Positions 5,791 through 47,220 are shown, counted from the first letter of the stretch. The stretch is 64,000 bases of DNA from an uncultured Pseudomonadales bacterium (GCA_964467735.1 CAYXSR010000001.1:108839-172838), one strand, 5' to 3'. Notes: a model not told the origin generated them from the sequence alone. A program made the numbers and translations.

Positions 5791-5806
5791 CTGTTAGAAT
5801 TTTATT

Positions 5807-6847: not shown

Positions 6848-6855
6848 TCCTACAA

Positions 6856-11685: not shown

Positions 11686-11799
11686 AAAATTAATCCTTAA
11701 TTTTTGAGAATAAAAACTCCGCCTCCTGTTAGCAACATATTACTAACATACGGCTGAGTTAATTATAGCAAACAAAGATTTTCTTGTCTTAAAAAGATT

Positions 11800-13794
11800 T
11801 TAATTAGTCTCAATTTCTAATATTTTATCTCTTATTTTTGCTGCTTGTTCAAAATCTAAATTTCTAGCATATTCGCGCATTTCTTTTTCTAGTTTCTTAA
11901 TTAGTTTTTTTCTGTCCTGAGGTGTTAATTGGTTTGGATCAATTTCTTCTTCCTCTTCTATTTCTTTTTCAATCAGCTTTGGTCTTATAGCTTTTTTAAT
12001 TGATTGGGGAGTAATGTTGTTTCTTTTATTATATTCCTGCTGTATTCTCCGTCTTCTTTCTACCTCTGAAATTGCTTGCCTCATTGCTTCACTCTCCTCA
12101 TCGGCATATAAAATCACTTTTCCTTTAACATTTCTAGCCGCCCGCCCCATAATTTGAATTAAACTAGTTTTAGAGCGTAAAAAACCTTGTTTATCTGCCT
12201 CTAAAATCGCTACCAATCCTACTTCTGGTAGGTCCAATCCCTCTCTTAAAAGATTGATTCCTACTAATACATCAAAATTGCCAGATCTTAAATCAGCCAA
12301 AACATCAGTTCTTTTTAGAGTATCAATATCTGAATGAAGGTAGGTAACTTTCAAATCAGTATTGGTTTTACTTGGATCAGATAAATAAGTGGCTAAATCT
12401 TCTGCTAGTCTTTTTGTCAAAGTAATTACCAAACTTCTTTGTCCTTGTTTCTTCTTTTGTTTAATTTGTTCGATTAAGTCTTTCACTTGGTTATCTGCAG
12501 GCAAAATTTTCACTGGTGGGTCTACAAGACCAGTTGGTCTAATAATTTGTTCAACTATTTTTCCATTACTTTTTTGAACCTCCCAATCTCCTGGAGTAGC
12601 CGAAACATAAATCCCTTGGGGAATTCTAGCCAAGATTTCATTAAACTTTAACGGTCGATTATCTAAACAAGAAGGAAGCCGAAAACCAAAATCAATAAGA
12701 TTTTCTTTCCGAGCAAGATCACCATAAAACATCCCTCGTAATTGAGGAATTGTTACATGAGATTCATCAACAACAACCAAAAATTTATCTTTATATTTGT
12801 AATTAAAATAGTCTAGTAAAGAATATGGTGGGTCGCCAGGATTACGACCATCAAAATATCGCGAATAATTTTCAATTCCATTAACATATCCAGTCTCGGC
12901 AATCATTTGTAAATCATAATTAACTCTTTTTTCGATCCTCTGAGCTTCTACTATTTTCCCTTGCTTTTTAAATAGACTTACTTGTCTTCCCTTTTCATCT
13001 TTAATAGTCTTAAAAATATTTCCTAAATCACCGGAAGCAGTTAAAAAATGTTTCGCCGGATAAATAGCGGTTGTCTCTTTTTCTTTTATTCTTTTATTAT
13101 TTAAACTAGCTATTTCAATTTTCTTAATCTTATTATTGTCAAAATAAATTTTAATAATTCTATCATCTGAATAAGGAAGAAAAATATCCAAACGATTTTG
13201 TCGTTGTCTAAAAGTTCCCGGTAAAAAATCAGCTGTTGCTCGCTGGTAGTAAAGTTCCACTAGTCGCTGGCCAACGGAAAACAAATCTTGCCTGTCACCT
13301 TTTTTTAACAGAATCGTTTGTTCTTTATATATTCCTGGGGCGCCAATATTATAAATACAAGAAACTGAAGCAATTACAATATTTCGAGGATAAGCAAAAA
13401 TATCGCTAGTAGCTTGAAGTCTTAACTGTTCAATTAGAGGGTTTATATCTACTTCTTTGGTAATATATGTATCAGATGCTGGAAGATAGGCCTCCGGTTG
13501 ATAATAATCATAATAAGAAACAAAATAAGAAACTGGATTGTTAGGAAAGAATTCTTTTAATTCTTGATAAAGTTGAGCCGCTAAAGTTTTATTGTGAGAA
13601 ATTATTAAAGTTGGTAACTGGCTTTCTTCGATTACCTTAGCAATAGTAAAAGTTTTACCACTGCCAGTAACTCCTAGCAATACTTGGTGTCTTTCTCCTT
13701 CTTCAAGTCCCTTTTTTAAAATTTCAATTGCTCGGGGTTGATCACCTCTTGGTTTAAATTTTGATTTTATTTTAAATTTATCCATACTTACCAA
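11800..13794 (-). CDS. uvrB: Excinuclease ABC subunit B (UvrB)
   Basis: Helicase motifs GVTGSGKT and VVDESHVT, and a C-terminal UVR domain DFEQAAKIRDKILEIE. 664 aa. Overlaps the upstream helicase-nuclease gene by 7 nt. Confidence 0.95.
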   Translation of the reverse strand: MVSMDKFKIKSKFKPRGDQPRAIEILKKGLEEGERHQVLLGVTGSGKTFTIAKVIEESQLPTLIISHNKTLAAQLYQELKEFFPNNPVSYFVSYYDYYQPEAYLPASDTYITKEVDINPLIEQLRLQATSDIFAYPRNIVIASVSCIYNIGAPGIYKEQTILLKKGDRQDLFSVGQRLVELYYQRATADFLPGTFRQRQNRLDIFLPYSDDRIIKIYFDNNKIKKIEIASLNNKRIKEKETTAIYPAKHFLTASGDLGNIFKTIKDEKGRQVSLFKKQGKIVEAQRIEKRVNYDLQMIAETGYVNGIENYSRYFDGRNPGDPPYSLLDYFNYKYKDKFLVVVDESHVTIPQLRGMFYGDLARKENLIDFGFRLPSCLDNRPLKFNEILARIPQGIYVSATPGDWEVQKSNGKIVEQIIRPTGLVDPPVKILPADNQVKDLIEQIKQKKKQGQRSLVITLTKRLAEDLATYLSDPSKTNTDLKVTYLHSDIDTLKRTDVLADLRSGNFDVLVGINLLREGLDLPEVGLVAILEADKQGFLRSKTSLIQIMGRAARNVKGKVILYADEESEAMRQAISEVERRRRIQQEYNKRNNITPQSIKKAIRPKLIEKEIEEEEEIDPNQLTPQDRKKLIKKLEKEMREYARNLDFEQAAKIRDKILEIETN

Positions 13795-16682
13795 ACAGGA
13801 CAGATTATTTTAAATGGACAGAAGTCGCAAAATGGTCCAGGAGTAGGATTAAAATTAGATTCTTTAATTTCTTCTGCTTTTTTAACTATTTCTTTTTTTG
13901 TTTGTTTTATTTGATCTTCTACCCTTTGAGTAGAGATTTTTTCTTGAGTTTCAAAAAAATAGAACGATAGTATTATGTTTTCTGGTTTTTGATTATAAAG
14001 TCCTGGGTCGGTAGCAGCCATCGCATAAAGAGTCATTTGTAAATCTTTATCAACTTCTTTCTTGCTCGCTAAACGACCAGTTTTATAGTCAATAATTTCT
14101 ATTTTTCCATCACTAAGCTTATCAATACGATCAATTCTACCACCTACTTTCAAACTTGGAGAAATTTTTAAAGTAAATGTTTGTTCTAAAGCAATCGGAT
14201 TATCTTCTTTCTTATAAGTTTTATTAAAAAATTCTATTAAAATCTTTTCCGCTCGTTGATACATTCTTTGTTCATGAGCTTTAGAATTATAACCTTCTTT
14301 TTGCCAATATTTTTTTAGTAATCCTATTAATTTATCTTTACTAACTGTAATACCGTCTCTAACTTGTTGATAAAAATCTTTTAAAACATTATGGATAGAG
14401 GTTCCAAAAGCCGCCGCCGCAAAAGTAGGTACGGGAATTTGTAAAAAATATTTATATTTATATTGCAACGGACACATTTTAAAAGTTTCTATTTGGGAAT
14501 AAGAAAGGAAATTTACTGGATAGATTATGTTTTGATTAATTAAAGTAGATTTTGTTTGTTTTACTGGTTGAAAATCAAAAATAGAAAGTTGACTTTCTTC
14601 TATATTTTTAATTTGGAGAGAATTTTTTATTTGTTCTATACCTAAAGTTTCATAAACAAAAGGAGAAATCTTTTTAATTCTTTTTGCTTCTCCGTAATAT
14701 TTAGATGCGGTAAGAAAAAGGAGATCTTTTGCTCTGGTCATCCCTACATAAAATAAACGCCGTTCTTCCTGCTCGTGAGAATCTCCTTCTGGTAAAACCT
14801 CTTCAATTAAATCATCTGGTATTGGAATTTGATCTTTCCTATCTCTTGTTGGAAAACGATCAGAAACTAAATTAACAATAAAGACTATTGGGAATTCCAA
14901 ACCTTTAGAGCTATGAATGGTTAAAATATTTACTTTATTTTCTTCTGTCCAATCATTATCTGAAGCTAAAGGAGACTCACCCATTTCTATTTTTAAATTA
15001 ATCCAATCAACTATTGCCTCAATACTATTATCTTCATGGTCCACTTCATAACTTTTTAATTTATTAAAAAATTTAGTAATATTTTCTGTTTTTTGTTGTT
15101 CCTTTTCTGTTTTTGGTTCTGCTAATTGCTGAAGTAGGCCAGAATCTTGAAGAAAATAGTAACTTATTTGACCACCAGTTTCTGTAGCAATTAATTTTAA
15201 ATGGCGATGAATCATGTCAACGAGCTTTTTAATTTTTTCTTTATTTTCTGAAGAAATAAAAAGTTTATCAGCTTGTTCGGCGGCCTCAAAAAAAGAAATA
15301 TTCATTTTCTTACTAAAATTCTTCAAAGCAGCGATATCCCGACTAGAAATATCAAAAACTGGTAACGATAAAACTCTAAAAAAAGAGACATTATCTTCAA
15401 AGTTATATAAAACTCTAAGATAAGCTATTAGATCTTTTACTTCATCTTGTCGGAAAAGTTTTCCTGGTCCTAAAAATTGAAAAGGAATACCATTTCTCAG
15501 AAAAGAGCTAACAAATGGTTCGGCATGATTGTTAGCTCTAACCAGAATAGCAATTTCTCCATACTTATATTGGCTTTTTTGATTAACAAGTTTTTTAATT
15601 TCTTTCACTACCGTATCGGCTTCATCTTCAACCCTATTACGAAATAAAAATTTAATTTCTTCTCCCTTAATCCGTCGATTAGATACTAATTTTTTATCGA
15701 TATTCTCTTTTACTTCCAAACGGTCAGGATTATTATTTTGAATCAATTTATATGCTTTATTTAGAATTTCTTGGGTTGAACGATAATTCTTTGTCAAGCT
15801 TATAATTTTAGTTTTGGGGTATTCCTGTTTAAATTGTAAAACATTAGAAATTGCTGCTCCTCGCCACTTATAGATAGATTGATCATCATCAGCAACAACA
15901 GTAAGATTGGCTTTTGTCCCAGCTAAAAGTATAACTAATTTATTTTGAGCAACATTTGTATCTTGAAACTCATCGACCAAAATATATTTGAATTTTTGTT
16001 GATATTTTTTCAAAATATTCTTTCTTTTTCTAAATAAATTTAGAGTATGAGTAATTAAATCGGCGAAGTCCATTAATCCTTCTTTTACTTTTAGTTCTTG
16101 GTACTTTCGATAGGCTTTAACCAACTCTAAATCTTTTTTAATCTCCTCTTTTTCTTTACTAGACTTTTTTTGTTGCTTCTCTAACCAATCAGAATATTTT
16201 TTTGGAGAAATGTCTTCATCTCTCAAACGATTGAAGTGAACTAAAAGGCCATTTAAAAATCTTGTCGGATTACCGGCTGGGCGATAATAATCAAGTTCAA
16301 AATCAAAAAGGTGCTTTTTCAAAAATAAAAGTGTCTCTGCTTCGGTCATCAAGGAATAATGAGGATCTAAACCAATATTTAATGCCTCATCGCGCAAAAC
16401 TCGATCACAAAATGCATGGAAAGTAGAAATCCACATTTGAAAACAACCCAAAGGCATAATTTCATCCACTCTTTGCTCCATCTCCAAAGCTGCTTTCTCG
16501 GTAAAAGTCAACGCTAAAATTTCTGACGGTTTGGCAATTTTTGAAGAAATTAAATGTTTTATTCTTTCGGTAACTACAGTGGTTTTTCCTGTACCAGCAC
16601 CAGCAATGATTAATAGTGGCCCTCGACCATACTTTATTGCTTGAAGCTGTTGTTGATTCAAAACCTTATTATCATCAACCAT
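13788..16682 (-). CDS. Fused UvrD-like SF1 helicase and C-terminal PD-(D/E)xK Cas4/AddB-type nuclease with a 4-Cys FeS-cluster signature
   Basis: N-terminal Walker A AGAGTGKTTVVTER, VDEFQDTN, and LFYVGMTRAK. C-terminal nuclease motifs GRIDRID, IEIIDYKTG and QMTLYAMAA. Cysteines are placed as FKMCPLQY near the start of the nuclease domain and CDFCPFKIIC at the extreme C-terminus (Cas4/AddB iron-sulfur arrangement). Confidence 0.8.
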   Translation of the reverse strand: MVDDNKVLNQQQLQAIKYGRGPLLIIAGAGTGKTTVVTERIKHLISSKIAKPSEILALTFTEKAALEMEQRVDEIMPLGCFQMWISTFHAFCDRVLRDEALNIGLDPHYSLMTEAETLLFLKKHLFDFELDYYRPAGNPTRFLNGLLVHFNRLRDEDISPKKYSDWLEKQQKKSSKEKEEIKKDLELVKAYRKYQELKVKEGLMDFADLITHTLNLFRKRKNILKKYQQKFKYILVDEFQDTNVAQNKLVILLAGTKANLTVVADDDQSIYKWRGAAISNVLQFKQEYPKTKIISLTKNYRSTQEILNKAYKLIQNNNPDRLEVKENIDKKLVSNRRIKGEEIKFLFRNRVEDEADTVVKEIKKLVNQKSQYKYGEIAILVRANNHAEPFVSSFLRNGIPFQFLGPGKLFRQDEVKDLIAYLRVLYNFEDNVSFFRVLSLPVFDISSRDIAALKNFSKKMNISFFEAAEQADKLFISSENKEKIKKLVDMIHRHLKLIATETGGQISYYFLQDSGLLQQLAEPKTEKEQQKTENITKFFNKLKSYEVDHEDNSIEAIVDWINLKIEMGESPLASDNDWTEENKVNILTIHSSKGLEFPIVFIVNLVSDRFPTRDRKDQIPIPDDLIEEVLPEGDSHEQEERRLFYVGMTRAKDLLFLTASKYYGEAKRIKKISPFVYETLGIEQIKNSLQIKNIEESQLSIFDFQPVKQTKSTLINQNIIYPVNFLSYSQIETFKMCPLQYKYKYFLQIPVPTFAAAAFGTSIHNVLKDFYQQVRDGITVSKDKLIGLLKKYWQKEGYNSKAHEQRMYQRAEKILIEFFNKTYKKEDNPIALEQTFTLKISPSLKVGGRIDRIDKLSDGKIEIIDYKTGRLASKKEVDKDLQMTLYAMAATDPGLYNQKPENIILSFYFFETQEKISTQRVEDQIKQTKKEIVKKAEEIKESNFNPTPGPFCDFCPFKIICPVW

Positions 16683-16683
16683 C

Positions 16684-17751
16684 TTAAGTTTCTTTTTTTA
16701 ATTGCTTAAATTCTTTTTCCGTATCTGCCTCTGATAGGGCTTGAGTAGAAGAAAGTTTTTGACCTAATAAAGAAAAGTTTTGTAGAACGTTAGAAAATTG
16801 ATTATAAGCATTATTAAGATGTTTGCCTAAAACTTGTAAAACTCCTTCTGTTTTTTCATAGTCTTTTTGGATTGCTCTTAAAAGTCGGAAGACTTGGCGC
16901 GAACGAGTTTCGATTTTCTTTCCTTCAAATGATAAAAGAATCATTTGAAGATGAGCATATAATGTTGTTGGCGAAACAGGATAAACACGATAGTGACGAG
17001 CAAGATCAGTAATATCAGAGATATTAACAATCTCATAATATACTGGCTCTGAAGGTATATACATTAGAGCAAAATCCATTGTTCCTTCTTCTGGTAGAAT
17101 ATATTTCTTCGAAATATCTTTTATGTGTTTTCTTACATCAGAAACAAAAACTTTTCTTATTTTATCTCTTTCTCCTTTTGTTTCCGCTTTAATCATCCTT
17201 TGAAAATTTTCCATTGGAAATTTAGAATCAATTGACAAAATACCAGCATCTGTTTTTAAAGCCGCATCTACTTTTTCTCCACTTTTAAAACTATATTGAA
17301 GATGAAAACTATTTTTGGGAAACATCTGGGAAATTAAATCTTTTAAAACTTCTTCACCAATATTTCCTCTAAGTTTGGGACTTTTTAAAAATTCTTGAAG
17401 ATCTTTCATTGATCGACCGATTTCACTCATCTGACCGACTTCTTTAGCAACTTTAGAAATATAATGAGCGGCATTATCTAAACGCTCATTCATTGCTTTA
17501 GTTGATTGATGAAGAGTATCAGAAATATTTTTATTAGTTAAATTGAGAACGTCCTGTAAGGTCCTTGATTGGCTTTGAAGTCCTCTTTGTAAATTATTAG
17601 TCCCTTTTTGTAAAGTCTCAATTACCCTTAAGAGGTTTTCATCAGTTTTATTATCTTTTACCAATTGTGTTAACTTACGACTAATAAACCATGTAAAAAT
17701 AGCTAAAGCAGAAATTATTAAAGCAACAATAAGATAAATTTCATTAGTCAT
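16684..17751 (-). CDS. rmuC: DNA recombination protein RmuC-like
   Basis: N-terminal TM segment, a long coiled-coil, and a C-terminal RmuC-type region. Its stop lies 2 nt upstream of the helicase-nuclease start, so the two are in an operon. Confidence 0.7.
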   Translation of the reverse strand: MTNEIYLIVALIISALAIFTWFISRKLTQLVKDNKTDENLLRVIETLQKGTNNLQRGLQSQSRTLQDVLNLTNKNISDTLHQSTKAMNERLDNAAHYISKVAKEVGQMSEIGRSMKDLQEFLKSPKLRGNIGEEVLKDLISQMFPKNSFHLQYSFKSGEKVDAALKTDAGILSIDSKFPMENFQRMIKAETKGERDKIRKVFVSDVRKHIKDISKKYILPEEGTMDFALMYIPSEPVYYEIVNISDITDLARHYRVYPVSPTTLYAHLQMILLSFEGKKIETRSRQVFRLLRAIQKDYEKTEGVLQVLGKHLNNAYNQFSNVLQNFSLLGQKLSSTQALSEADTEKEFKQLKKET

Positions 17752-27476: not shown

Positions 27477-28438
27477 TCAAAAAGTTCGGCGTATTTCCCT
27501 GAAATCCAACCTTCCTTATCTTTTTCATATTCAATTTTATACCAACCTGTTTCATTCGACTCAATAAACTTATAAGTCTCTCCGGGATGAACTTTTGTCA
27601 AAATAGTTTCCTCCTTACCAAAAGTAGAGGCTTCACTTCTAACATTTAACCAACCAGTCGGCGTATCTTTAATTTTAACATAAGGTTTTTCCAGTAACTC
27701 AGCACTACTGGTAGATTCTTTGATTTTAGGACTAGGGCTGGGTGTAGCTGATTCGCTGGCAGATTCATCTTCATCTTCTAGTTGAGCAGATGGAGAGGCC
27801 TCTTCATTTTCAGTGTCTTTTTCTTCTTCTAAAATACGAGCCAGCTGAACATTAATTACTAATTTATATCCCTTAACTGTTTTCGCCTTAAGTTCCATTT
27901 CTTCAAAACCAGGAGTAGCAATATTCAAAAGATGTTCGTTCTCACTAATATCTTCTAAAGATAGTGGAGTGAAGCCCTTTGGTTCTCCATCAACGGTAAC
28001 TACTGCACTATCTGGATTACTAATAATTGATACTTTAGCATTGTTTTTTTGACTTATTGGTTCTAGATTTAAAATATAGCCGCTTGATTCATCTTCTAAT
28101 TCTCCAAAATTTTGATTAACAACACTTAAAACACCGGCTGTCAATTTAATTGTCTTCTGCCAACTTAAGCTTTCTTTTCCTTCAGGAATTAATTTTAAAG
28201 TATATTCTCCTGGTTTTAACTTCTCGTCAAAAAAAGGTGTTTGTCCTAAATGTTGACCATCAAGAAAAACAGTTGCTCGAGGATCAGCAGTAACTTGAAG
28301 AGCGGCTTTTTTTTTATTATTTAAGAACGGCAGACTACATCCAGTAAGGAAGACAGAAATCAAAATGATTAATAAAAAAGAAGTAATCCTTCTAACATTC
28401 ATTGGCCTTATAATATCATGATGGTTCAGGCTTGACAA
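27473..28438 (-). CDS. Lipoprotein with two PEGA-like repeats, an acidic linker and a C-terminal bacterial SH3 domain
   Basis: Signal peptide plus lipobox VFLTGCS. Repeats VFLDGQHLGQTPF and VTVDGEPKGFTPL. E/D/S-rich linker. C-terminal GWLNVRSEASTFG...GETYKF...GWYKIEY (SH3b-like). Confidence 0.55.
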   Translation of the reverse strand: MSSLNHHDIIRPMNVRRITSFLLIILISVFLTGCSLPFLNNKKKAALQVTADPRATVFLDGQHLGQTPFFDEKLKPGEYTLKLIPEGKESLSWQKTIKLTAGVLSVVNQNFGELEDESSGYILNLEPISQKNNAKVSIISNPDSAVVTVDGEPKGFTPLSLEDISENEHLLNIATPGFEEMELKAKTVKGYKLVINVQLARILEEEKDTENEEASPSAQLEDEDESASESATPSPSPKIKESTSSAELLEKPYVKIKDTPTGWLNVRSEASTFGKEETILTKVHPGETYKFIESNETGWYKIEYEKDKEGWISGKYAELFD

Positions 28439-28482
28439 GATAAGAGTTAATTTCTATTTTTGTTTTTTTTAATGATAAAATT

Positions 28483-28491
28483 TGCTAAAAT
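28483..28491 (+). promoter_or_regulatory. Extended -10 element (TGaTAAAAT) positioned to drive the tRNA-like element and hypC
   Basis: TGATAAAAT at 28483..28491, 12 nt upstream of the tRNA-like 5' end. A TTGACA hexamer also occurs at 28432..28437. Confidence 0.35.
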
Positions 28492-28503
28492 AACAGGTAA
28501 ATT

Positions 28504-28574
28504 GGCCTCGTGACAGAGAAGTTATGTGCTGGTCTGCAAAACCAGTTACGCCGGTGCGATTCCGGCCGAGGCCT
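28504..28574 (+). tRNA. tRNA-Cys(GCA) candidate (or tRNA-like structure)
   Basis: Manual fold gives a perfect 7-bp acceptor stem (GGCCTCG/CGAGGCC), a perfect 5-bp anticodon stem (CTGGT/ACCAG) with loop CTGCAAA (U33, anticodon GCA), and a perfect 5-bp T-stem (GCCGG/CCGGC). U8, A14, G18 and the U73 discriminator typical of tRNA-Cys are present. The D-stem is weak, and the T-loop reads TGCGATT (G in place of U55). No encoded CCA. Confidence 0.5.
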
Positions 28575-28580
28575 CAAATT

Positions 28581-28790
28581 ATGTGTTTAGCAATACCTGT
28601 TAAAGTCAAAAATATTAAAAAAAACTTAGCCGAGCTTGAAGGAGGTAAAAAAGTAAAACTTTCTTTAGTTCCTGATGTTCAAATCGGTGATTACCTCTTG
28701 GTACATGGTAATTTAGTAATTAATAAACTCTCCCCCGTCGAAGCTAAAAAAATTCTTGATCTAATAAAAAGTTGTCCCCATCATCATTAA
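28581..28790 (+). CDS. hypC: [NiFe]-hydrogenase maturation chaperone HypC/HupF
   Basis: Begins with the invariant MCLAIP; 69 aa. The ORF track extends it upstream (from 28524) through the tRNA-like element, but the conserved N-terminus argues for the ATG at 28581. Confidence 0.8.
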   Translation: MCLAIPVKVKNIKKNLAELEGGKKVKLSLVPDVQIGDYLLVHGNLVINKLSPVEAKKILDLIKSCPHHH

Positions 28791-28795
28791 AAAAT

Positions 28796-29671
28796 ATGAA
28801 AAAAGGTGTTTTTTTCTGTTTATTAACTGCCCTCATTTCTGGAATTTCAATTTTTATTAATAAGTTTGGGGTTACAGGAATTAATCCTTTTGTTTTTGCT
28901 TTTTTAAAAAATTTTTTAGTCGCTTTCTTTATCTTTTCTCTAAATTCAAAAAAGCAACTTAATAACTTTAAAAAATTAAATTCTAGAGACTGGCTTCATT
29001 TAATTTTAATTGGCTTAATTGGCGGCTCTCTCCCTTTTCTTTTATTTTTCAAAGGCCTCTCTTTAACAAATCCAGCTGATGCTAATTTTATCCATAAAAC
29101 TATGTTTATTTGGGTAGGAATTCTAGGAGTATTAGTTCTAAAAGAAAAAATTAACTATAACTTTTTAAAAATTGGTTTTTTGCTCTTTATAGCTAATTTT
29201 CTTTTAATTAAAAACCTAGCGTTTAATTCCTTAAAGGGAAACCTATTAATATTTTTAGCAACCTTACTCTGGTCTACAGAAACAGTTATTAGTAAAAAAG
29301 TTCTTAAAACTATACCATCAATTACTGTCGCCTGGGGAAGGATGTTTTTTGGGACAATTATCTTAGCTGGATTATTAGCTTTTAATAATCAATTAATACT
29401 TTTAAAGCAGATAAATTGGTTACAATTTTCTTGGATAATAATTACAGCTGCTTTACTCTTAGGATATGTAACAACTTGGTACAAAGGGTTAAAAGAAATT
29501 CCTGCCTCTTTAGCTTCTGGCATATTGCTTTTTGGTTCACCAATCACTACAATCTTGGATTTTATATTACTGAAGAATTTAGAGTTAAAACAGCTTAGTG
29601 GTTTACTAGTTATTTTTTTCACAACCTCCTTAATTCTTAAAAAAGCAAATTATGTCTATCGTCGGAATTAA
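28796..29671 (+). CDS. DMT-superfamily (EamA-like) transporter
   Basis: About 290 aa with 10 predicted TM helices arranged as two 5-TM repeats. Start chosen at MKKGVFF (28796). Confidence 0.65.
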   Translation: MKKGVFFCLLTALISGISIFINKFGVTGINPFVFAFLKNFLVAFFIFSLNSKKQLNNFKKLNSRDWLHLILIGLIGGSLPFLLFFKGLSLTNPADANFIHKTMFIWVGILGVLVLKEKINYNFLKIGFLLFIANFLLIKNLAFNSLKGNLLIFLATLLWSTETVISKKVLKTIPSITVAWGRMFFGTIILAGLLAFNNQLILLKQINWLQFSWIIITAALLLGYVTTWYKGLKEIPASLASGILLFGSPITTILDFILLKNLELKQLSGLLVIFFTTSLILKKANYVYRRN

Positions 29672-30428
29672 AACTGCGATTCTTTATTCTCTACCTCCGT
29701 GTGAACTAGGATTTTGTGGCCCTAAACAAAAACAAGCTAAAAAAATTCTTCGGCAATTTATTCTGGGTAAAAAAGTAAATATTGCCAAAATCAAAAAGGC
29801 TTTAAAAAATTTTGAAGCTGCTTTTCCATATTATCAATTAATCGCTAAAGCCAATAATATTAAAGATGTTTTTAGTAAAAAAGTCGTTGAAGCTTATTGG
29901 CTAGGTAATGGTCTTTTAAAAAAAGTGAAATATTCAGATATTATTCATCTTATCCTCAGCCAGTTCTCCCAACCAGGTCTTTTAACTTTAAAAGAAGCCC
30001 AAAAACGAATAAAAAAAATCCCAAAGAGGGCTAAAGCTCATCATGTCTTTCATGTTTTTATTCTTGGTCCAATTGCTGGCAGAATTAATTTCACTCCTGA
30101 ACTTTTGGATTTATGTCGGGTTAGTTGGGGACAAATTATAAAAATAGAAAAAAACTCAAAATCTTTAAAAGTGAAAGTAAAAACTAAAACACTAATCATT
30201 CAGAACGGAAAATATGCCTTAGGGACAAAGATAATTAAACAAATTGAAGGAAATAAACACATTTTTAAAAACTTAAAGATTGGCCAGTGGATTAGTTTTC
30301 ATTGGAACCAAGTCTGTGATGTTTTAAATAACCAAAAAGTAAATGCGCTAAAATATTATACAAAAATTCACTTAATGAACAGCACAAGTAATACAGGGGT
30401 CAAAACTTCTAATAAGAATCTCAATTAA
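29652..30428 (+). CDS. Hypothetical protein with conserved Cys/His motifs (CELGFCGP, HHVFHVF), function unknown
   Basis: 258-aa ORF in the hypC-to-hydrogenase interval. Its 3' end overlaps the convergent hydrogenase large-subunit gene by 57 nt. Confidence 0.35.
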   Translation: MSIVGIKTAILYSLPPCELGFCGPKQKQAKKILRQFILGKKVNIAKIKKALKNFEAAFPYYQLIAKANNIKDVFSKKVVEAYWLGNGLLKKVKYSDIIHLILSQFSQPGLLTLKEAQKRIKKIPKRAKAHHVFHVFILGPIAGRINFTPELLDLCRVSWGQIIKIEKNSKSLKVKVKTKTLIIQNGKYALGTKIIKQIEGNKHIFKNLKIGQWISFHWNQVCDVLNNQKVNALKYYTKIHLMNSTSNTGVKTSNKNLN

Positions 30429-31619
30429 ATTATGTTGTTCTTCTATTGGCCGATTTTTATTTTGAGTTAGTAAACTAGTTGCCGCCTCTTCTATTGCTGC
30501 TAAATTTTGAGCTGTTGGAGTAAGAATATTACAATAAACTACTTTTCCATCTTTGACTTCAAAAGAATAATAAAGCGTTCCTCTTGGTGCCTCAATCGCT
30601 GCGCTTCCAACTCCTGATCTAAACGGTATCTCTACTTGAACTTCTTCTTGGGGACTTCTGTTAAACCAGTAAAGCAAATTTAATGCCTCCTCAAGAAAAT
30701 GAAAAATTTCTATTGCTTGAGCTACATTGATAAAAAATGGGTTTTTCTCTGGTAAAACAAGTGCCATATCTTTTAAAACTTTATTAGTTCTCCTATGAAG
30801 CCTATTTTTAAATTGATTAAGTCTGGAAAGTGCCCCGACTACAAAAGGTTTACTGGTAAACGAAGAATATTTTACTGGTGACCCATATTTTACCTGTTCA
30901 ATAATCAATTTTTGATAGTCGCCTGGGTCTGCCTTAAAACCAGTTAAACAACTAATTTGGCCATCATAATATGAATAATCCTTGTCGTTGTCTAAACAGA
31001 TCTGGGATGGATTAAAATTGCTAATCTTAGGGTATTCTAAGTGGCTAAAAATGCTAATTAGCTCCTCAGCACCAGAGAAAACCTGTTCGATATCTAGAAT
31101 TAAGGAAGATAGCCTGTCTCTATCTGGTTCTTGAGTAAACCCTCCCACCATCGGAGTAATCGGATGGACAACTCTGCCTGTAATTATTTCTAGAAGTCTG
31201 TCGCAGATTTTCTTTAATTTTAAAACCATATGGTATTCCACTGGATAAAGTTTAATTATCTCAATTCCTCTTTCTTTTTCAGGGGTAAAATCAGGCAAAA
31301 CAAGAAAAAAAAGGTGAATAAGGTGGCTGTTGATAATTTGACAGCAAAGCATTAATTTTCTTAAGTTGATAATTGTCTCATTTACTTTTACCCCTAAAGC
31401 GTTTTCTAAGGCTTTTATTGATCCTAAACTGTGAGCAACAGGGCAAATTCCACAGATTCTACAGGCAATAAAGGGAGCTTCCTGAAAATCCCTACCTCTT
31501 ACTAGCTGTTCAAACAGTCTTTCTCCCTCACTTACAACCAAATGAGCCTTATGATTAGCCATATCTAGCTTAAGATGTCCATGACCTTCGATTCTGGCAA
31601 TTAGATTAGATGTAGGCAT
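30372..31619 (-). CDS. [NiFe] hydrogenase large (catalytic) subunit, small cytoplasmic group-3-like type
   Basis: N-terminal Ni-Fe ligand motif RICGICPVAH. C-terminal ligand motif DPCITCAVH forms the last nine residues, i.e. there is no C-terminal maturation peptide. 415 aa. Overlaps the small-subunit gene by 14 nt. Confidence 0.9.
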   Translation of the reverse strand: MPTSNLIARIEGHGHLKLDMANHKAHLVVSEGERLFEQLVRGRDFQEAPFIACRICGICPVAHSLGSIKALENALGVKVNETIINLRKLMLCCQIINSHLIHLFFLVLPDFTPEKERGIEIIKLYPVEYHMVLKLKKICDRLLEIITGRVVHPITPMVGGFTQEPDRDRLSSLILDIEQVFSGAEELISIFSHLEYPKISNFNPSQICLDNDKDYSYYDGQISCLTGFKADPGDYQKLIIEQVKYGSPVKYSSFTSKPFVVGALSRLNQFKNRLHRRTNKVLKDMALVLPEKNPFFINVAQAIEIFHFLEEALNLLYWFNRSPQEEVQVEIPFRSGVGSAAIEAPRGTLYYSFEVKDGKVVYCNILTPTAQNLAAIEEAATSLLTQNKNRPIEEQHNLIEILIRSFDPCITCAVH

Positions 31620-32337
31620 TGAAAGAATTAATTAATTTATCTAGCTCTTCTTCTGGTAAAAAAGACAGTGTTTTCTTAATCATTTCTCGAGTAATTCCCT
31701 GTTTTAATCCCCAACATCCCCAACAGTATCTACCTGATTCGACACAAACCGCTCCACAACCAGCAAAAGTAAATACACCTAAACATTTCTTTTTCTGACG
31801 AACTAAACATCGTGAAGAATTAAATGGTCCCCGAGGACATTCAGTACAGACAGAAGTTTTTTTCTCTGGAGGAATTTTATCTTTTAAAAGATAAATTAAA
31901 GCCTCTTTTATTTGTTTAGGATTAGCTGGACAACCTCTAATAAAATAATCTACTTTCACATAACAATGGATTGGTTTTACTTCAAAGGCTCCCAATTTAT
32001 ACATTTGGTTATAGCTTTTATTCTTTGCTTCTTCCCTTGAAGATTGTTGGTTGAGGATTGATTGAATACCTCCTAAAGTAGCACAACTTCCCAAAGCTAC
32101 TAAGATTTTTGACTGTTGACGAATTTTTTTAATCCTTTGAATATCTTGACTATTGGTAATAACTCCTTCAACAATACTTATATCAAAGGGACCTTCAGTT
32201 TTAAAATCTGATCCCAAACGAAAGTTTACTAACTCATTGTCAGCGATTAAATCCATTAAAAATGTCCCTAAACCTAATAATTCAACCTCGCAGCCCTCAC
32301 AGTCAGTAAAGTCAAAAATAGCAATTTTTTTACCCAT
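31606..32337 (-). CDS. [NiFe] hydrogenase small (FeS) subunit, cytoplasmic, with no Tat signal
   Basis: Proximal-cluster cysteines DCEGCE, GSCA and GCP, plus a Cys-rich C-terminal third (CTECPRGP, CLGVFTFAGCGAVC, CWGCWG). No RRxFxK signal. 243 aa. Confidence 0.8.
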   Translation of the reverse strand: MGKKIAIFDFTDCEGCEVELLGLGTFLMDLIADNELVNFRLGSDFKTEGPFDISIVEGVITNSQDIQRIKKIRQQSKILVALGSCATLGGIQSILNQQSSREEAKNKSYNQMYKLGAFEVKPIHCYVKVDYFIRGCPANPKQIKEALIYLLKDKIPPEKKTSVCTECPRGPFNSSRCLVRQKKKCLGVFTFAGCGAVCVESGRYCWGCWGLKQGITREMIKKTLSFLPEEELDKLINSFNAYI

Positions 32338-32437: not shown

Positions 32438-33145
32438 TTGGGCCTAAATAAAGCCCTACCTATGATTAATTTAAAACAAAAATTTAATCTTTTAAAGACT
32501 TGGTTAAGTGCTGTTTTCTATTGGCTTGAGGAAAATAAATTGGTTGGAGATTTTTTCAAAATCTTTTCTGACAAAAGAAGAAAAGGTAATCTTTTCTCTC
32601 GACCTTTCCGTTTGCTTTTCTCTGGTAGAAAAGTCGGGAAACTACAAAGTATTGTTTTAATCTTTACTTTAACTATTACCGGACTCGTTTCTAGTGCTAC
32701 ACCTGTTTTTGGTCAACCGGAAGAGCTCGAAGAACTTGCTGTTAGACAAGAGATTAGCCAACCAATCACGACTGAAACTACCTTTAGAAATCCTGTTGAA
32801 GGTTATCTTTCCCAGGGTTATCATTGGGGTCACTGGGCAATTGATATTGCTGGTAATGCTGGTAAAGAAATCTTCCCAGTTGCTGAAGGTGAAGTAATCG
32901 AGGTTGACTCAAGTCGTTGGGGTTATGGTCATAAAGTTATTGTAAAACATAGTGAAAATCTTGTTTCTCTTTATGCCCATATGAATGAGATGAAAGTGGA
33001 AATTGGCCAACATGTTGATAAAAATACTGTCTTAGGTACTGTTGGTTCAACTGGTTGGTCAACAGGTGCCCACCTTCACTTAGAAATCTGGGAAAATAAT
33101 AAAGCTATAAACCCTATCTTAGTTATACCAGGGTGGCAGAAATAA
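32438..33145 (+). CDS. M23-family (LytM-like) peptidoglycan metalloendopeptidase
   Basis: HWGHWAIDIA (HxxxD) and SLYAHMNE...GAHLHLEI (HxH). The TTG start follows the ORF track; an in-frame ATG at 32462 is an alternative. Confidence 0.75.
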   Translation: MGLNKALPMINLKQKFNLLKTWLSAVFYWLEENKLVGDFFKIFSDKRRKGNLFSRPFRLLFSGRKVGKLQSIVLIFTLTITGLVSSATPVFGQPEELEELAVRQEISQPITTETTFRNPVEGYLSQGYHWGHWAIDIAGNAGKEIFPVAEGEVIEVDSSRWGYGHKVIVKHSENLVSLYAHMNEMKVEIGQHVDKNTVLGTVGSTGWSTGAHLHLEIWENNKAINPILVIPGWQK

Positions 33146-42802: not shown

Positions 42803-43782
42803 TCGTTTTTATTAAACTGCCAAAAAATCTTAGAGATTTTTGGAAGAGCATCCAGGGCTTCGTCTTCAGATACTTCTTTAGTTAAAATGCATAAAACATA
42901 AGGATTTTCAGCAAAAACAATGCCGCAATCATTATATGTTTGAATCTCATTTCCAATTTTATGAACTACTCTAATATTCTCTGGAACTCCTTTAGGAATT
43001 CTATCTTCAAAGGCAGTATCAATTAGGGCGGCAAAAATTTTCTCTTTATTTCTTTCTTTCAACAAAGAACCTTCATAAAGAGCAGCAAAAAAATTACCCA
43101 TTTCTTTAGGAGTTGTTATATTATCTGCTAATAAAGTATTAGTTGCCCCAAGTTTATTTAAAGTGCTTTGAATTTTGCTTCTTCCAATAATTTTTTCCAA
43201 AACATAAGCGGCCGTATTGTCAGAGATTTTCCCTGATAATTCAACAAGTTCACGATAAAAATATTTTGTTCCTAAAGATTGATATCTCATTTGACCTGTT
43301 CCATAATCCTGAACATCTTGTTTTTGTAAGAAATATTCGCCCTCTTCTTTAAGTCTTTCCACTTCTACTTCTTGATAAAAAGCAACCATAATCGGAACTT
43401 TATTAACAGAGGCGGCAGTAAAAACTTCATTCTCATTAAAACCCAATTCTATGTCTTTTTGCAAATTAAAATAATAAACACCGTAAACACCACGAAGCTC
43501 AGAAACTAAAGAATCTAAAGAATATAAAACATCTTCTTTATTTTTGAAACCGCTTGTATCTTTTGCGACCTTTGAAGAATTCTTAGTTACTTCATAAACA
43601 AAAGGTTGTTGAAAGCCTTCAAACCAATTAAGTCTTTTACTCCTCAGCCAAAAAATAGCAGAGATTAAAACAGAACCAAGTAAAGTTACTAAAGTTATTA
43701 TCCTTCTTTTTCTCTTTACTCTTTTATTATCTTGTTTATCACTAAGTTTATTATCGAGAAGTTTTTCCCTTGTAATTTGCAT
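42799..43782 (-). CDS. Class-A beta-lactamase-like serine hydrolase, membrane-anchored
   Basis: SVNK (SxxK), SDN and KIG (KTG-type) motifs in the canonical order. N-terminal TM. 327 aa. Confidence 0.6.
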   Translation of the reverse strand: MQITREKLLDNKLSDKQDNKRVKRKRRIITLVTLLGSVLISAIFWLRSKRLNWFEGFQQPFVYEVTKNSSKVAKDTSGFKNKEDVLYSLDSLVSELRGVYGVYYFNLQKDIELGFNENEVFTAASVNKVPIMVAFYQEVEVERLKEEGEYFLQKQDVQDYGTGQMRYQSLGTKYFYRELVELSGKISDNTAAYVLEKIIGRSKIQSTLNKLGATNTLLADNITTPKEMGNFFAALYEGSLLKERNKEKIFAALIDTAFEDRIPKGVPENIRVVHKIGNEIQTYNDCGIVFAENPYVLCILTKEVSEDEALDALPKISKIFWQFNKND

Positions 43783-44750
43783 TAATCAATAAAATCTTTT
43801 ATTGTTTTTATTAAGCTGTCACTATCTAATGAATATTCTTTGAGCAAACCTTGATAACTACTGGCAGTCTGTCCAAATCTATCATTAATTCCTAAGCTTA
43901 TACATTTATACATGAAACCAAGATTTTTTAAAGAATTAAAAACAGCCGAAGCTAATCCACCAAGTAATTGGTGATCTTCTATAATTATTAACTTCTTGGT
44001 TTTATTTAGAGATTTAATAATTGTCTTTCCATCCAATGGTTTGATTGTATGCAAATTAATGATTTCTAGCTTCACTTTTAATTTTTCTAATTGTTCAGCT
44101 GCTTTTAACACTTCTGCTAATAGTGGTCCTGCACTAATAACTGTTGCCATTGATCCTTCTTTTAAAATTTGCGCTTTACCAAGGTTAAATATATTCTTCT
44201 TACTAATGAAAACTTCTGTGGGTTCACGGGTGATTCGAAGATAAACCGGCGAGTTAGAATCAGTAATTTTTTCAACCAACATTTTTGCTTGATTATAATC
44301 GGCTGGATAAACGACTTTCATATTCGGTAATACTTGCATTAAAGCTAAATCTTCTGTTGCTTGAGCAGTAAAACCATCGCTTGGATGAGAAAGGCCGGCA
44401 TGAGAACCAACAATCTTAACTGGTAAATTGTTAGCGGCAATACAAATTCTTATTTGTTCCCAAGCTCTACCAGTGACAAAGGTCGCAAAAGAACAGACGA
44501 AAGGAATGAGCCCTTGCATCGCTAAACCAGCACTAATACCAATAAGGTTCTGTTCGGCTACTCCCACTTGAAAAAATCGATCAGGAAAAGTTTTATGAAA
44601 TAAGTCTAAACGAGTTGAGCTCTCCAAATCAGCTGTTAATGCTAAAATTTTTTCTTTTTTCTTAGCTACTTCCACTAAGGATTCACCAAAAGCATCTCTT
44701 AATGACCTTTTCTCTTTTAATTGCCAATCTTTTATTAAAAACTTATTCAT
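43782..44750 (-). CDS. Transketolase, C-terminal (pyrimidine-binding) subunit
   Basis: 322 aa, collinear with the C-terminal half of transketolase. Overlaps the N-terminal subunit gene by 8 nt. Confidence 0.85.
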   Translation of the reverse strand: MNKFLIKDWQLKEKRSLRDAFGESLVEVAKKKEKILALTADLESSTRLDLFHKTFPDRFFQVGVAEQNLIGISAGLAMQGLIPFVCSFATFVTGRAWEQIRICIAANNLPVKIVGSHAGLSHPSDGFTAQATEDLALMQVLPNMKVVYPADYNQAKMLVEKITDSNSPVYLRITREPTEVFISKKNIFNLGKAQILKEGSMATVISAGPLLAEVLKAAEQLEKLKVKLEIINLHTIKPLDGKTIIKSLNKTKKLIIIEDHQLLGGLASAVFNSLKNLGFMYKCISLGINDRFGQTASSYQGLLKEYSLDSDSLIKTIKDFID

Positions 44751-45561
44751 CTTTTTCTAATTCTTGAAGAGCTCTTTGATAAAAATTGTCATCTACTTTT
44801 GGATGATGGACGTCAGCTCTTCCCTCCATAAACGAAATACCTCGACAACCAACTGTGTGACTTATCAAAACTGTCGGTTTATCTTTTTTGAGTTGTTTAT
44901 TAAATGCTTTAAAAATTTGTCTAAAATTATGGCCGTTTAACTCAATAACTCGCCATCCAAAACTCTCGTATTTTTTCTTTAATGGCTCTAAAGCTAATTG
45001 TTTCTCTGTAAATCCACCTATTTGAGTACCATTACGATCAATAATAGCAATTAAGTTTTTTAACTTGTAATGACTAGCAGCCATTGCCGCCTCCCATACT
45101 TCTCCTTCTTGCTGCTCACCATCGCTCATCATAACAATTACTTTATTATTTTTCTTTTTTATTTTTAATCCGAGCGCAATTCCGACTGCTTGTGACAAGC
45201 CCATTCCTAATGATCCAGAAGATATCTCAATACCCGGTAGGCTTTTTCTTTTAGGATGTCCCTCTAATTTACTTCCGGTTTGTCGGAATTTTTTTAATTC
45301 ATCTTTTGAAAAAAATCCTTTATAAGCTAAAATTGCATATAAAGCAGGACAAGCATGTCCATTTGAGAGTAAAAAATAATCTCTTTCTTCCCAATTTGGT
45401 TTTTTTGGATTAATTTTTAAAAGGTTACCAAAATATAAAGCAACTAACATTTCAGCAGTAGAAAAAGAGCTTCCCAAATGCCCGCTACCTGCCTGATGAA
45501 TCATCTCTAAAACTTCTAATCTTATCTTTTTGGTTATTTTTTTCAGTTCATGAATGTTCAT
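44743..45561 (-). CDS. Transketolase, N-terminal (thiamine-diphosphate-binding) subunit
   Basis: GHLGSSFSTAE, GSLGMGLSQAVG, MMSDGEQQEGEVWEA. 272 aa. Confidence 0.9.
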   Translation of the reverse strand: MNIHELKKITKKIRLEVLEMIHQAGSGHLGSSFSTAEMLVALYFGNLLKINPKKPNWEERDYFLLSNGHACPALYAILAYKGFFSKDELKKFRQTGSKLEGHPKRKSLPGIEISSGSLGMGLSQAVGIALGLKIKKKNNKVIVMMSDGEQQEGEVWEAAMAASHYKLKNLIAIIDRNGTQIGGFTEKQLALEPLKKKYESFGWRVIELNGHNFRQIFKAFNKQLKKDKPTVLISHTVGCRGISFMEGRADVHHPKVDDNFYQRALQELEKDE

Positions 45562-45564
45562 TAA

Positions 45565-46203
45565 TTATTGTAAAGATAAAAATGTTTCTTTAAGATTATT
45601 TTGTTTCCAAAAAAAACTACCAACGGCAATACTGTCTGCTCCTGCCAGATAACAAGCTTTTGCTGTTTTGAAATTTATTCCTCCATCTACACAAATCTCA
45701 AAATTAAATTTCTCTTCTTGTTTTAATCTTCTTAATTTTTTTATCTTCTCCAAAACTTTTGAATTAAATTTTTGACCACTAAAACCCGCTTTAACTGCCA
45801 ACAATAATATAATATCAATTTTTTTAAGGTTTTTTTTATTAATTAAACTAACCGGTGAGTCTAAATCTAATGCTAAACCAGGTTTAATTCCTTTTTTCAA
45901 AACGCTCTGAATAAATAATGATTCATTTTGTAATTCCTCTAGATGGGCAATAAGCCGATTAATTTTTATTAATTTTATTTGTTCAATTAATTGAATTGGT
46001 TTTTTCACCATAAGATGTAAATCAATCTGAAATTGATTTACATCTTCTATTTGACTGAGTAAAGAAATCGGAACTGTTTTATTATTAACAAATTTTCCGT
46101 CAAGACAATCAATTTGAATATGGTGCGTAATATTTTGTAATCGGTGAAGTTTATCCTTTAGTTTTTTAATATCATCAGTAAGAATTGTGGGAATTACTTT
46201 CAT
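45565..46203 (-). CDS. rpe: Ribulose-phosphate 3-epimerase
   Basis: MKVIPTILTDDI N-terminus and CVDGGIN. Start chosen at MKVIP. The ORF-track extension (to 46251) would overlap the gap gene. Confidence 0.75.
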   Translation of the reverse strand: MKVIPTILTDDIKKLKDKLHRLQNITHHIQIDCLDGKFVNNKTVPISLLSQIEDVNQFQIDLHLMVKKPIQLIEQIKLIKINRLIAHLEELQNESLFIQSVLKKGIKPGLALDLDSPVSLINKKNLKKIDIILLLAVKAGFSGQKFNSKVLEKIKKLRRLKQEEKFNFEICVDGGINFKTAKACYLAGADSIAVGSFFWKQNNLKETFLSLQ

Positions 46204-47204
46204 TTTGCGATTAATAGTATTTCTTCTACTAAACGATTGATATACCCCCATTCATTGTCATACCAAGCAATAATCTTTAGAAGATCATCAGCAACCACTG
46301 TGGTTAAAGACAGATCGACAATACATGATAAACAACTACCGATTATGTCTGAAGACACTAAGGGCTCTGCCGTGTAACCTAAAACATTTTTTAATTCTTT
46401 TTGAGAGGCTTCTTTAATAATATTGTTAACTTCTTCTTTTGTTGTTTTTCTTTTAGTTACAAACACTATATCACTTAAAGAACCTACAGGAACAGGCACT
46501 CTTACTGACAAACCATCAAAAATATTTTTAACTTTAGGGTATACTTTTCCTGTTGCTCCGGCAGCACCAGTAGTTGTAGGAACAATATTTATGGCTGCTG
46601 ATCGACTTCGACGTAGATCTTTATGTGAACCATCAAGGATCTCTTGATCAGAAGTATAGGCATGAATAGTTGTCATTATGGCTTTTTTGACACCGATTTT
46701 TTGATCAATTAATTTAATAATTGGAGCAATACAGTTTGTTGTGCAAGAAGCACAAGAAATTATTGGTTCATTTTTTAGTCGATTCTCATTAACACCAATA
46801 ATATAAATTGGAATATTTCCTTCCTTAGACGGAGCTGATAGAATTACTTTTTTAACTGTATCTCTGAGGTGTTTTTTAATGTCTGTTTCTTTTCGGAAAA
46901 CACCAGTTGATTCAATTACAATTTCTGTTCCATATTTTCCCCATGGAATCTTTTCCGGATCTAATTCTCCCATTACAGGAATATTTTCTCCATCAACAAC
47001 TATATGTTCACCTTTAGTTTGTACTTCACCTTCATATTTTCCATAAACACTATCGTATTTAAAAAGATGAGCCCAACCGACTGCATCCATTTTTCCGGAT
47101 GTGTTTATAGCCACTAACTGAATTTTATCTTTAAAATCTTTTAATATTAATCTAGCAGCCAAACGACCAATTCGACCGAAACCATTAATACCAACTTTAA
47201 TCAT
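46200..47204 (-). CDS. gap: Glyceraldehyde-3-phosphate dehydrogenase
   Basis: GINGFGRIGR NAD-binding motif, active-site ASCTTNC. Start chosen at MIKVGINGFG; the ORF-track extension (to 47252) overlaps rpiB. Confidence 0.9.
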   Translation of the reverse strand: MIKVGINGFGRIGRLAARLILKDFKDKIQLVAINTSGKMDAVGWAHLFKYDSVYGKYEGEVQTKGEHIVVDGENIPVMGELDPEKIPWGKYGTEIVIESTGVFRKETDIKKHLRDTVKKVILSAPSKEGNIPIYIIGVNENRLKNEPIISCASCTTNCIAPIIKLIDQKIGVKKAIMTTIHAYTSDQEILDGSHKDLRRSRSAAINIVPTTTGAAGATGKVYPKVKNIFDGLSVRVPVPVGSLSDIVFVTKRKTTKEEVNNIIKEASQKELKNVLGYTAEPLVSSDIIGSCLSCIVDLSLTTVVADDLLKIIAWYDNEWGYINRLVEEILLIAK

Positions 47205-47220
47205 TTTTAAACCCCGCTTT

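Follow-up and report, generated by a model that had tools for sequence, protein, structure and literature searches.

The window analysed here is a stretch of 64,000 nucleotides (GCA_964467735.1, CAYXSR010000001.1:108839-172838), and all positions given below are those of this whole stretch; the region of interest, 28581-32337, holds a [NiFe]-hydrogenase locus built of two convergent units. On the minus strand lie the genes of the small (delta) subunit (31606-32337, 243 amino acids; PF01058, Oxidored_q6) and of the large (alpha) subunit (30372-31619, 415 amino acids; PF00374, NiFeSe_Hases), which share a 14 bp overlap; on the plus strand, a tRNA-Cys is followed by hypC, by a gene for an EamA permease of the drug/metabolite transporter (DMT) type, and by the gene of a DUF6390 protein, the last 57 bp of which overlap the end of the large-subunit gene in a tail-to-tail arrangement. 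A divergent M23 peptidase gene (32438-33145, plus strand; Pfam Peptidase_M23) lies beyond the small subunit, and the Pfam matches of all six locus proteins, NiFeSe_Hases, Oxidored_q6, HupF_HypC, EamA, DUF6390 and Peptidase_M23, exceed their cut-offs. As read from its sequence, the locus probably encodes a cytosolic [NiFe]-hydrogenase of group-3b type, in the form of its catalytic alpha-delta dimer, and, convergent with it, an accessory operon.

Regarding the large subunit, the two motifs reported in the initial annotation are present: RICGICPVAH at residue 54, which fits the RICGICxxxH pattern, and DPCITCAVH at the very C-terminus. Motifs of these two types, L1 and L2, are invariant in the clade alignment (A1), and the protein keeps all the clade-invariant residues, including the four metal-ligating cysteines (C56, C59, C409 and C412), the EGHG motif and the arginine of EAPRG. 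Among the NCBIfam models, HydA (254 bits) and ShyA (207) score well above VhuA (135) and FrhA (133); however, every NCBIfam score is below the equivalog cut-off, which for HydA is 880 bits, and the protein is therefore a distant member of group 3b. The same ranking emerges from the PDB sequences, where the alpha subunit of Pyrococcus furiosus sulfhydrogenase I (SHI) and HyhL of Thermococcus kodakarensis reach 217 bits, against 154 for Mvh, 124 for the NAD-reducing group-3d enzyme and 122 for Frh. Judged by these scores, the catalytic subunits are of a distant group-3b type, although the window carries neither the co-encoded beta and gamma subunits nor the cleavable C-terminal peptide of a group-3b holoenzyme.

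As for the small subunit, it starts MGKKIAIFDFTDCEGCE (MGKKIAIF...) and has no RR motif; the absence of a twin-arginine translocation (Tat) signal, already reported, is thus upheld. Its best NCBIfam matches are ShyD/HydD, and its 12 cysteines serve the proximal (C13, C16, C85, C136), medial and distal [4Fe-4S] clusters, each aligning Cys-for-Cys with the delta subunit of P. furiosus SHI. The eight C-terminal cysteines, which the initial annotation took for extra clusters, are the standard medial and distal ligands and belong to the canonical three-cluster pattern of group 3b. The solved enzymes of P. furiosus (SHI; PDB 9e1j, 9e15, 9nez) and T. kodakarensis (Hyh; PDB 5yxy) are the best-scoring relatives of known structure for both subunits (110 bits for delta), and they share with the window the cytosolic location, the lack of a Tat signal, the L1/L2 motifs and the 12-Cys, three-cluster delta; they differ in that identity is only ~35%, that the window has no beta/gamma genes nearby, and that their alpha subunits continue for 4 residues past the last histidine in precursor-length entries, whereas that of the window has none.

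In the assembly of [NiFe]-hydrogenases, a C-terminal peptide and the protease removing it are treated as a standard checkpoint. Here, the 3′ end of the large-subunit gene reads GCT GTT CAT TAA, so that the stop follows directly on His415, with a second in-frame stop 7 codons later. This ending is shared by all of the nearest homologs (120/120), which stop exactly at the histidine of the C-terminal motif, and the alignment check proposed at the outset, whether the lineage systematically lacks the extension, is thereby answered in the affirmative. Among the best 150 cluster representatives at 50% identity, 44 have no extension, including the nearest 16, and the more distant group-3b enzymes carry 4-14 extra residues (of the FLxVxF type, with VARL/IVRL in two representatives). 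In a neighbour-joining distance tree of 60 sequences with 200 bootstraps, the extension-less enzymes, which come from the candidate phyla radiation (CPR), Altiarchaeota and a few other metagenome-assembled genomes (MAGs), form one clade with 95% bootstrap, whose members stop at the histidine of DPCxxCxxH. The missing C-terminal peptide is, on this comparative evidence, a trait of the clade, neither an oddity nor an error.

The distribution of the maturation protease follows the same lines. Related loci, designated by L-numbers, include those gathered by an alignment-based scan of contigs; in the loci with an extension (L015, L017, L021, L090) a protease gene stands immediately after the large subunit, and none was seen in the flanks of the extension-less relatives. 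Queries for the endopeptidase, for beta/gamma and for HypA/B/D/E/F were harvested from related loci, validated there, and run by six-frame phmmer on the 64 kb of the window; no endopeptidase homolog was found at E ≤ 1, in keeping with the protease-free neighbourhood first described. With no assembly peptide to remove, no endopeptidase step would be needed. The lack of the extension is not tied to the two-subunit state, because four-subunit relatives share it (L005 from Altiarchaeales; L007, L009 and L089 from CPR). Literature searches found no paper noting extension-less group-3b or CPR hydrogenases, and the clade-wide protease-free design appears to be new to the literature.

Two other endings were seen among group-3b-type large subunits. 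Three four-subunit enzymes from Nitrospirae/Nitrospira MAGs (L018, L020, L031) end in DPCISCSVH followed by the stop and group with the extension-bearing enzymes, which suggests that they lost the assembly peptide independently. Conversely, the C-terminus is lengthened by 134-202 residues in seven proteins (P0150, P0218, P0226, P0233, P0234, P0239 and P0241), and in at least one of them the addition holds an endopeptidase-like motif (…ALGNPYRQDDAAG…); their sequences suggest fusions between the large subunit and its protease.

As for the electron-transfer subunits, no homolog of beta (Fer4_22) or gamma (FAD/NAD) was found at E ≤ 10 in the window, that is, across ~30 kb on each side of the locus, which bears out the lack of a nearby diaphorase. 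Similarly, Pfam annotation of the other open reading frames (ORFs) of the window gave no ferredoxin, flavoprotein or nickel transporter, and a motif search gave no small ferredoxin, rubredoxin or thioredoxin ORF; the electron partner cannot be read from the gene context, as the initial annotation stated. The NAD(P)-linked beta/gamma module accompanies many relatives outside the subclade of the window; within this subclade, which has a bootstrap of 70.5%, beta/gamma occurs in 0 of 11 members. The closest relative is L086/87 (52% identity; grouping with the window at 100% bootstrap), whose short contigs, reaching <2 kb upstream and ~4 kb downstream, carry no beta/gamma; the subclade also takes in L002-4 and the fused forms L093, L094, L101 and L122, for which no beta/gamma was found across flanks of 6-11 kb. 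Its members include small subunits of 170 amino acids and single-polypeptide fusions of small and large subunit. A second subclade devoid of beta/gamma (gene order EamA-DUF6390-small-large) is supported at 91.5%. The absence of beta/gamma is thus a lineage trait of the window's subclade and not a local accident, the two-subunit composition first proposed is a property of this subclade, and the evidence favours a true loss of the diaphorase in the lineage of the window.

The window and L086 have in common, with respect to the delta subunits of beta/gamma-linked relatives, an RGPF insertion beside the medial/distal ligands and a shorter C-terminal tail. L086 follows the layout of the window except that two further genes separate the large subunit from the cassette (L086:3153-5532): one for a desulforedoxin-like protein of 51 amino acids (Desulfoferrod_N, CxxC...CC), the other for a spermine-synthase-like protein of 712 amino acids. 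By its sequence, the 51-residue iron protein is a candidate electron carrier; it has no homolog in the window. As regards the fused forms, the small-large fusions measure 566-600 amino acids with a small domain of ~165-235 amino acids (L093:6097-7848, L094:10001-11782), and further cases are L010, L013, L101, L118 and L122 together with the proteins P0012, P0025, P0050 and P0062. They are encoded between the phosphoglycerate kinase (PGK) and glyceraldehyde-3-phosphate dehydrogenase (GAPDH) genes, in a glycolysis operon of CPR-type genomes. Behind the fusion, L093 and L094 have an unannotated ORF (240-281 amino acids) containing VLVHWG, a motif like that of HypC/DUF6390; nearby is a thioredoxin that matches HyaE weakly.

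The initial annotation presented the locus as an unusual one-off; instead, CPR-specific group-3b-related hydrogenases with hypC nearby and without beta/gamma have already been described (Jaffe 2020, PMC7304191), the window enzyme belongs to them, and it is ordinary for CPR bacteria. Two types were distinguished in that work, both with hypC-like neighbours: hyd1 is a four-subunit type in which beta/gamma were sometimes undetected or not adjacent, and hyd2 consists of a long-branch large subunit and a consistently truncated small one (mean 164 amino acids), with no beta/gamma and an uncertain function. Compared with hyd1 by the description in the paper, the clade placement and the 243-residue small subunit fit (~250 amino acids expected), whereas beta/gamma are absent; compared with hyd2, the small subunit of the window is of full length with three clusters, while those of the hyd2-like clade measure 156-203 amino acids, and that clade is separate at 100% bootstrap. 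The window combines a full-length, hyd1-like delta with missing beta/gamma, and it groups with the delta-alpha fusions. The paper makes no mention of C-terminal processing, of a transporter or of a DUF6390-type neighbour. The separate CPR clade (L091, L128, L129, L139, L142, L146, L149, L152 and L160), which is probably hyd2, has large subunits with a 7-residue extension and EamA-DUF6390 alongside; neither beta/gamma nor a protease gene was seen within its flanks.

The plus-strand unit is headed by the tRNA-Cys gene (GCA anticodon; 28504-28575, plus strand; ARAGORN, and Rfam tRNA at 57 bits), which ends 5 nt before the start of hypC and so leaves no room for a ribosome-binding site or for a separate hypC promoter. 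The tRNA is probably the head of the accessory transcription unit; a promoter-like TTGACA-17-TATTTT lies at 28432-28460 (a consensus match only), and the locus showed no hairpin resembling a terminator. hypC (28581-28790, plus strand) encodes 69 amino acids that match PF01455 at 62 bits (E 6e-17; cut-off 28.5) and TIGR00074 at 53.5 bits (cut-off 48); the protein starts MCLAIP, has the conserved histidine in GDYLLVH, and ends in an unusual Cys/His-rich tail, SCPHHH. Comparable tails occur in the group of L088, L089, L002, L007 and L135 (ECHHHH, HCHHDHGK, ACHHQGTK, GHTHAHSHT). They were found in 7 of 28 cassette HypCs against 0 of 20 canonical HypCs adjacent to HypD; the tail is thus only partly true as a general feature of the cassette, and its composition suggests that it may bind metal. 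The EamA/DMT permease (28772-29671, plus strand; PF00892, E 2e-35) has ten predicted transmembrane segments and a likely start at ATG 28796 (MKKG...), giving 291 amino acids. The cassette permeases, including that of L090, form a distinct subfamily with mutual scores of 105-231 bits, compared with 23-31 for unrelated EamA paralogs; as for a metal-binding signature, they have no convincing conserved His/Cys/Asp motif.

The permease and the DUF6390 ORF had been regarded as boundary genes, an assignment that does not hold, because both are part of a conserved hypC-EamA-DUF6390 cassette. The layout of the window, with small- and large-subunit genes facing DUF6390-EamA-hypC in convergent orientation, recurs in a relative from Patescibacteria (42% identity); relatives at 43-45% identity combine beta-gamma-delta-alpha with the cassette, L009 has the colinear order beta-gamma-hypC-EamA-DUF6390-small-large, and on the high-GC, actinobacterial-looking contig L090 a single operon reads hypC-EamA-DUF6390-beta-gamma-delta-alpha-HycI. 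The cassette is also present in L088, L089, L091 and L092. Loci seeded with DUF6390 avoid bias because they were not fetched through the hydrogenase: of the metagenome loci of this kind, 18 extend 5 kb or more to either side, and in 17 of these a gene for a [NiFe] large subunit lies no more than 10 kb away; three look-ups of DUF6390 proteins placed 3/3 beside a hydrogenase. A cassette-type EamA stood directly upstream of DUF6390 in 13 of the 18 well-flanked loci and in 52 of all 80 seeded loci. From gene order and family membership, hypC-EamA-DUF6390 is a conserved hydrogenase-linked cassette, and the linkage of the DMT+DUF6390 pair to hydrogenases appears to be new to the literature.

In actinobacterial genomes (L073:20412-21119, L083:19986-20705) and on high-GC contigs (L148, L166, L157), DUF6390 lies inside hyp operons, either directly after hypE or in the order large-protease-hypA-hypC-EamA-DUF6390, and the hydrogenases have extensions of 9-40 residues. 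The cassette was also considered as a specific substitute for the protease, and this was rejected since L090 and L148 combine cassette, extension and protease. Another variation on HypC was encountered in a Thermodesulfobacteriota MAG and in a Saccharibacteria MAG, where a HypC domain is fused to a radical S-adenosylmethionine (SAM) enzyme (BioB/HydE-like, BATS; L011:12565-13947 and L007:11776-13053, both on the minus strand). These fusions are encoded 0.5-1.5 kb downstream of extension-less group-3b large subunits, each beside an ordinary HypC; nothing was found on them in literature searches, and they could hint at a non-canonical route of ligand synthesis.

The DUF6390 protein (29652-30428, plus strand; 258 amino acids) matches PF19927 at 147.5 bits (E 6e-43; cut-off 25), covering positions 12-236 of the 244 in the model. 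In Streptomyces, Actinoplanes, Asanoa and relatives, more than 3700 homologs of the family bear no annotation other than DUF6390, and literature searches returned nothing specific on it. An all-helical N-terminal domain spans about residues 1-155 and is followed by a HypC-like oligonucleotide/oligosaccharide-binding (OB)-fold domain at about residues 155-242. In an alignment of 48 sequences, Cys22-Gly23 (FCGP), Ala-Tyr-Trp 81-83, Val135, Cys155 and His217 are invariant, and the helical domain also has a His131-x-Phe-x-Val motif. By hhalign, residues 155-232 match HypC with a probability of 94.8% (E 5e-8), Cys155 falling on the essential Cys2 of HypC and His217 on its conserved histidine; the family profile, searched against all PDB sequences, hits only the HypC entries 2z1c, 3vyr and 3d3r, and reciprocal searches with hidden Markov models of DUF6390 and HypC cross-match weakly. 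The AlphaFold (AF2) model (predicted local distance difference test, pLDDT, 93) has an N-domain of nine to ten helices, then a beta-barrel and a terminal helix; with Foldseek, the barrel retrieves only generic OB-folds, and the helical domain has no match among solved structures (best E-value 3.2). On the strength of these alignments, DUF6390 is a HypC-like OB-fold domain, keeping the HypC cysteine and histidine, fused to a helical domain. Compared with the HypC/HupF/HoxL chaperones, its C-terminal domain aligns from the essential cysteine to past the conserved histidine; it differs from HypC in that the cysteine is internal (155) rather than N-terminal, and in that a helical domain of ~150 residues with its own invariant Cys and His precedes it. 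A canonical HypC is encoded alongside it in the window. The initial claim that hypC is the sole maturation gene nearby is imprecise: no HypA/B/D/E/F was found at E ≤ 1 in the 64 kb, but DUF6390 carries a HypC-like domain.

A possible working scheme can be drawn from these features. The Fe(CN)2CO group would be made by HypD/E/F encoded elsewhere, as presumed from the relatives L006 and L013, which carry hypC-hypD-hypE beside the enzyme. The HypC/DUF6390 pair would then act as a chaperone or scaffold, handing over the large subunit or holding it open, and, once Fe(CN)2CO had been delivered and nickel inserted, the active site would close without proteolysis; the permease might supply or remove a metal or small molecule for maturation. 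Once assembled, the alpha-delta dimer would exchange electrons via its distal cluster with a soluble partner, and in this way vent or recapture the reducing equivalents of fermentation; such a redox-balancing role is proposed. Related loci lie in glycolysis operons, and the window encodes GAPDH, pentose-phosphate enzymes and an ADP-forming acetyl-CoA synthetase. A broader version of this scheme is put forward only tentatively: the cassette would be a hitherto unrecognised module for [NiFe] biogenesis shared by Patescibacteria and Actinobacteria, in which DUF6390 may be a second, HypC-like scaffold or chaperone whose helical domain, with its Cys and His, would handle Fe(CN)2CO or nickel, and the permease may supply a metal or ligand precursor, and which in the window would support a protease-independent alpha-delta enzyme with a partner other than beta/gamma.

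Several points weigh against reading the locus as a self-contained alpha-delta dimer with its accessory operon. The searches covered 64 kb of the genome, and beta/gamma, hypABDEF and the electron partner could lie elsewhere; delta keeps its three clusters, as expected of an enzyme that docks onto beta; the subclade devoid of beta/gamma has moderate support (70.5%) in a distance tree; the taxonomic assignment of the host is indirect; the roles of DUF6390 and of the permease are drawn from gene neighbourhood and domain homology only; and the cassette is not specifically a substitute for proteolysis, since it also accompanies the protease-linked enzymes of L090 and L148. In a rather unlikely alternative, the genes belong to an ordinary four-subunit group-3b (sulf)hydrogenase whose beta/gamma and hyp genes are scattered over a rearranged small genome, and which would use NAD(P)H as does the enzyme of P. 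furiosus. The medial and distal clusters retained as in P. furiosus SHI delta would suit such an enzyme, as would the relatives at 43-45% identity with their complete beta-gamma-delta-alpha set; moreover, beta/gamma lie ~5 kb from the delta/alpha genes in L024, and those of hyd1 are sometimes non-adjacent (Jaffe 2020, PMC7304191). The scattering would, however, have to exceed 30 kb on either side, and beta/gamma are equally missing from the short contigs of L086/87 and from the 6-11 kb flanks of the other subclade members; the truncated-delta and fused forms of the subclade cannot dock beta in the usual manner, and the delta subunits of the window and L086 share the insertion by the cluster ligands and the shortened tail.

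A non-catalytic role for the pair, for example as an H2 sensor, or its decay into a pseudo-enzyme once its partners had been lost, is very improbable. Absence of the extension is classic for H2-sensing hydrogenases: in the sensors of group 2b, e.g., HoxC, and in Ech and CooH, the latter linked to carbon monoxide dehydrogenase (both group 4), the large subunit has nothing beyond the last ligand motif and matures without need of proteolysis (PMC7654741). This precedent, the lack of a partner or of maturation machinery nearby, and a histidine kinase at 62734-63804, though 30 kb off, are what speaks for a remnant or sensor; yet those enzymes belong to other groups, with other partners and functions, whereas here the trait occurs in a group-3b-type clade, the window proteins are closest to group-3b enzymes and not to group-2 sensors, and no regulator is adjacent. 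Decay is also at odds with two intact reading frames, with an accessory cassette that is intact and conserved, and with the retention of every clade-invariant residue (the four Ni/Fe cysteines, EGHG, EAPRG) and of the 12 Fe-S cysteines. Hardly any weight is given to the idea, raised in the initial annotation, that a mistake in assembly or sequencing produced the stop after His415 and hides a normal short extension, which is only an a priori possibility for a metagenome-derived sequence. A contig assembled independently (Logan) matches positions 27683-31784 with 100% identity, stop codon included, and the 120 homologs that end identically come from many independent samples, on which grounds the error was rejected; besides, the next codons (VNFCIIF-stop) are unlike extensions of the FLxVxF type, and past the stop the DNA already belongs to the convergent DUF6390 gene. 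On the whole, the initial observation is confirmed and its interpretation is supported in part, with the alpha-delta dimer and its accessory operon as the preferred reading.

This reading matters in several respects. A large natural group-3b-type clade without the peptide offers a natural test bed for the purpose of the peptide, and in the DMT+DUF6390 pair there is a concrete candidate, open to testing, for a maturation factor that has been missing; genetics would be feasible despite the uncultivable CPR host, because DUF6390 homologs abound in cultivable actinobacteria, e.g., Streptomyces. The full accessory set is relevant to the heterologous production of small cytosolic hydrogenases, and also to the reading of hydrogen metabolism in CPR bacteria, whose hydrogenases devoid of beta/gamma had so far been given no function.

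Regarding the host, the GC content of the window is ~31%, and a Patescibacteria (CPR) bacterium is indicated by its gene content and by the closest homologs. By Pfam, the other ORFs of the window relate to DNA repair, the cell envelope and the pentose-phosphate pathway, along with GAPDH, serine hydroxymethyltransferase (SHMT) and ADP-forming acetyl-CoA synthetase. A split transketolase, ribulose-phosphate epimerase, GAPDH, RpiB and the ADP-forming acetyl-CoA synthetase are encoded at 43782-47694 and 55012-57123, a gene set that corresponds to the fermentative core typical of CPR bacteria; the GAPDH gene is 14 kb from the hydrogenase in the window, and it is adjacent to the hydrogenase in many relatives. 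Finally, positions 3979-17751 form a dense DNA-repair block with a UvrD-type helicase, UvrC, UvrA, UvrB, an AddA-like helicase-nuclease (964 amino acids) and RmuC, among which two genes of the FemAB family are interleaved.

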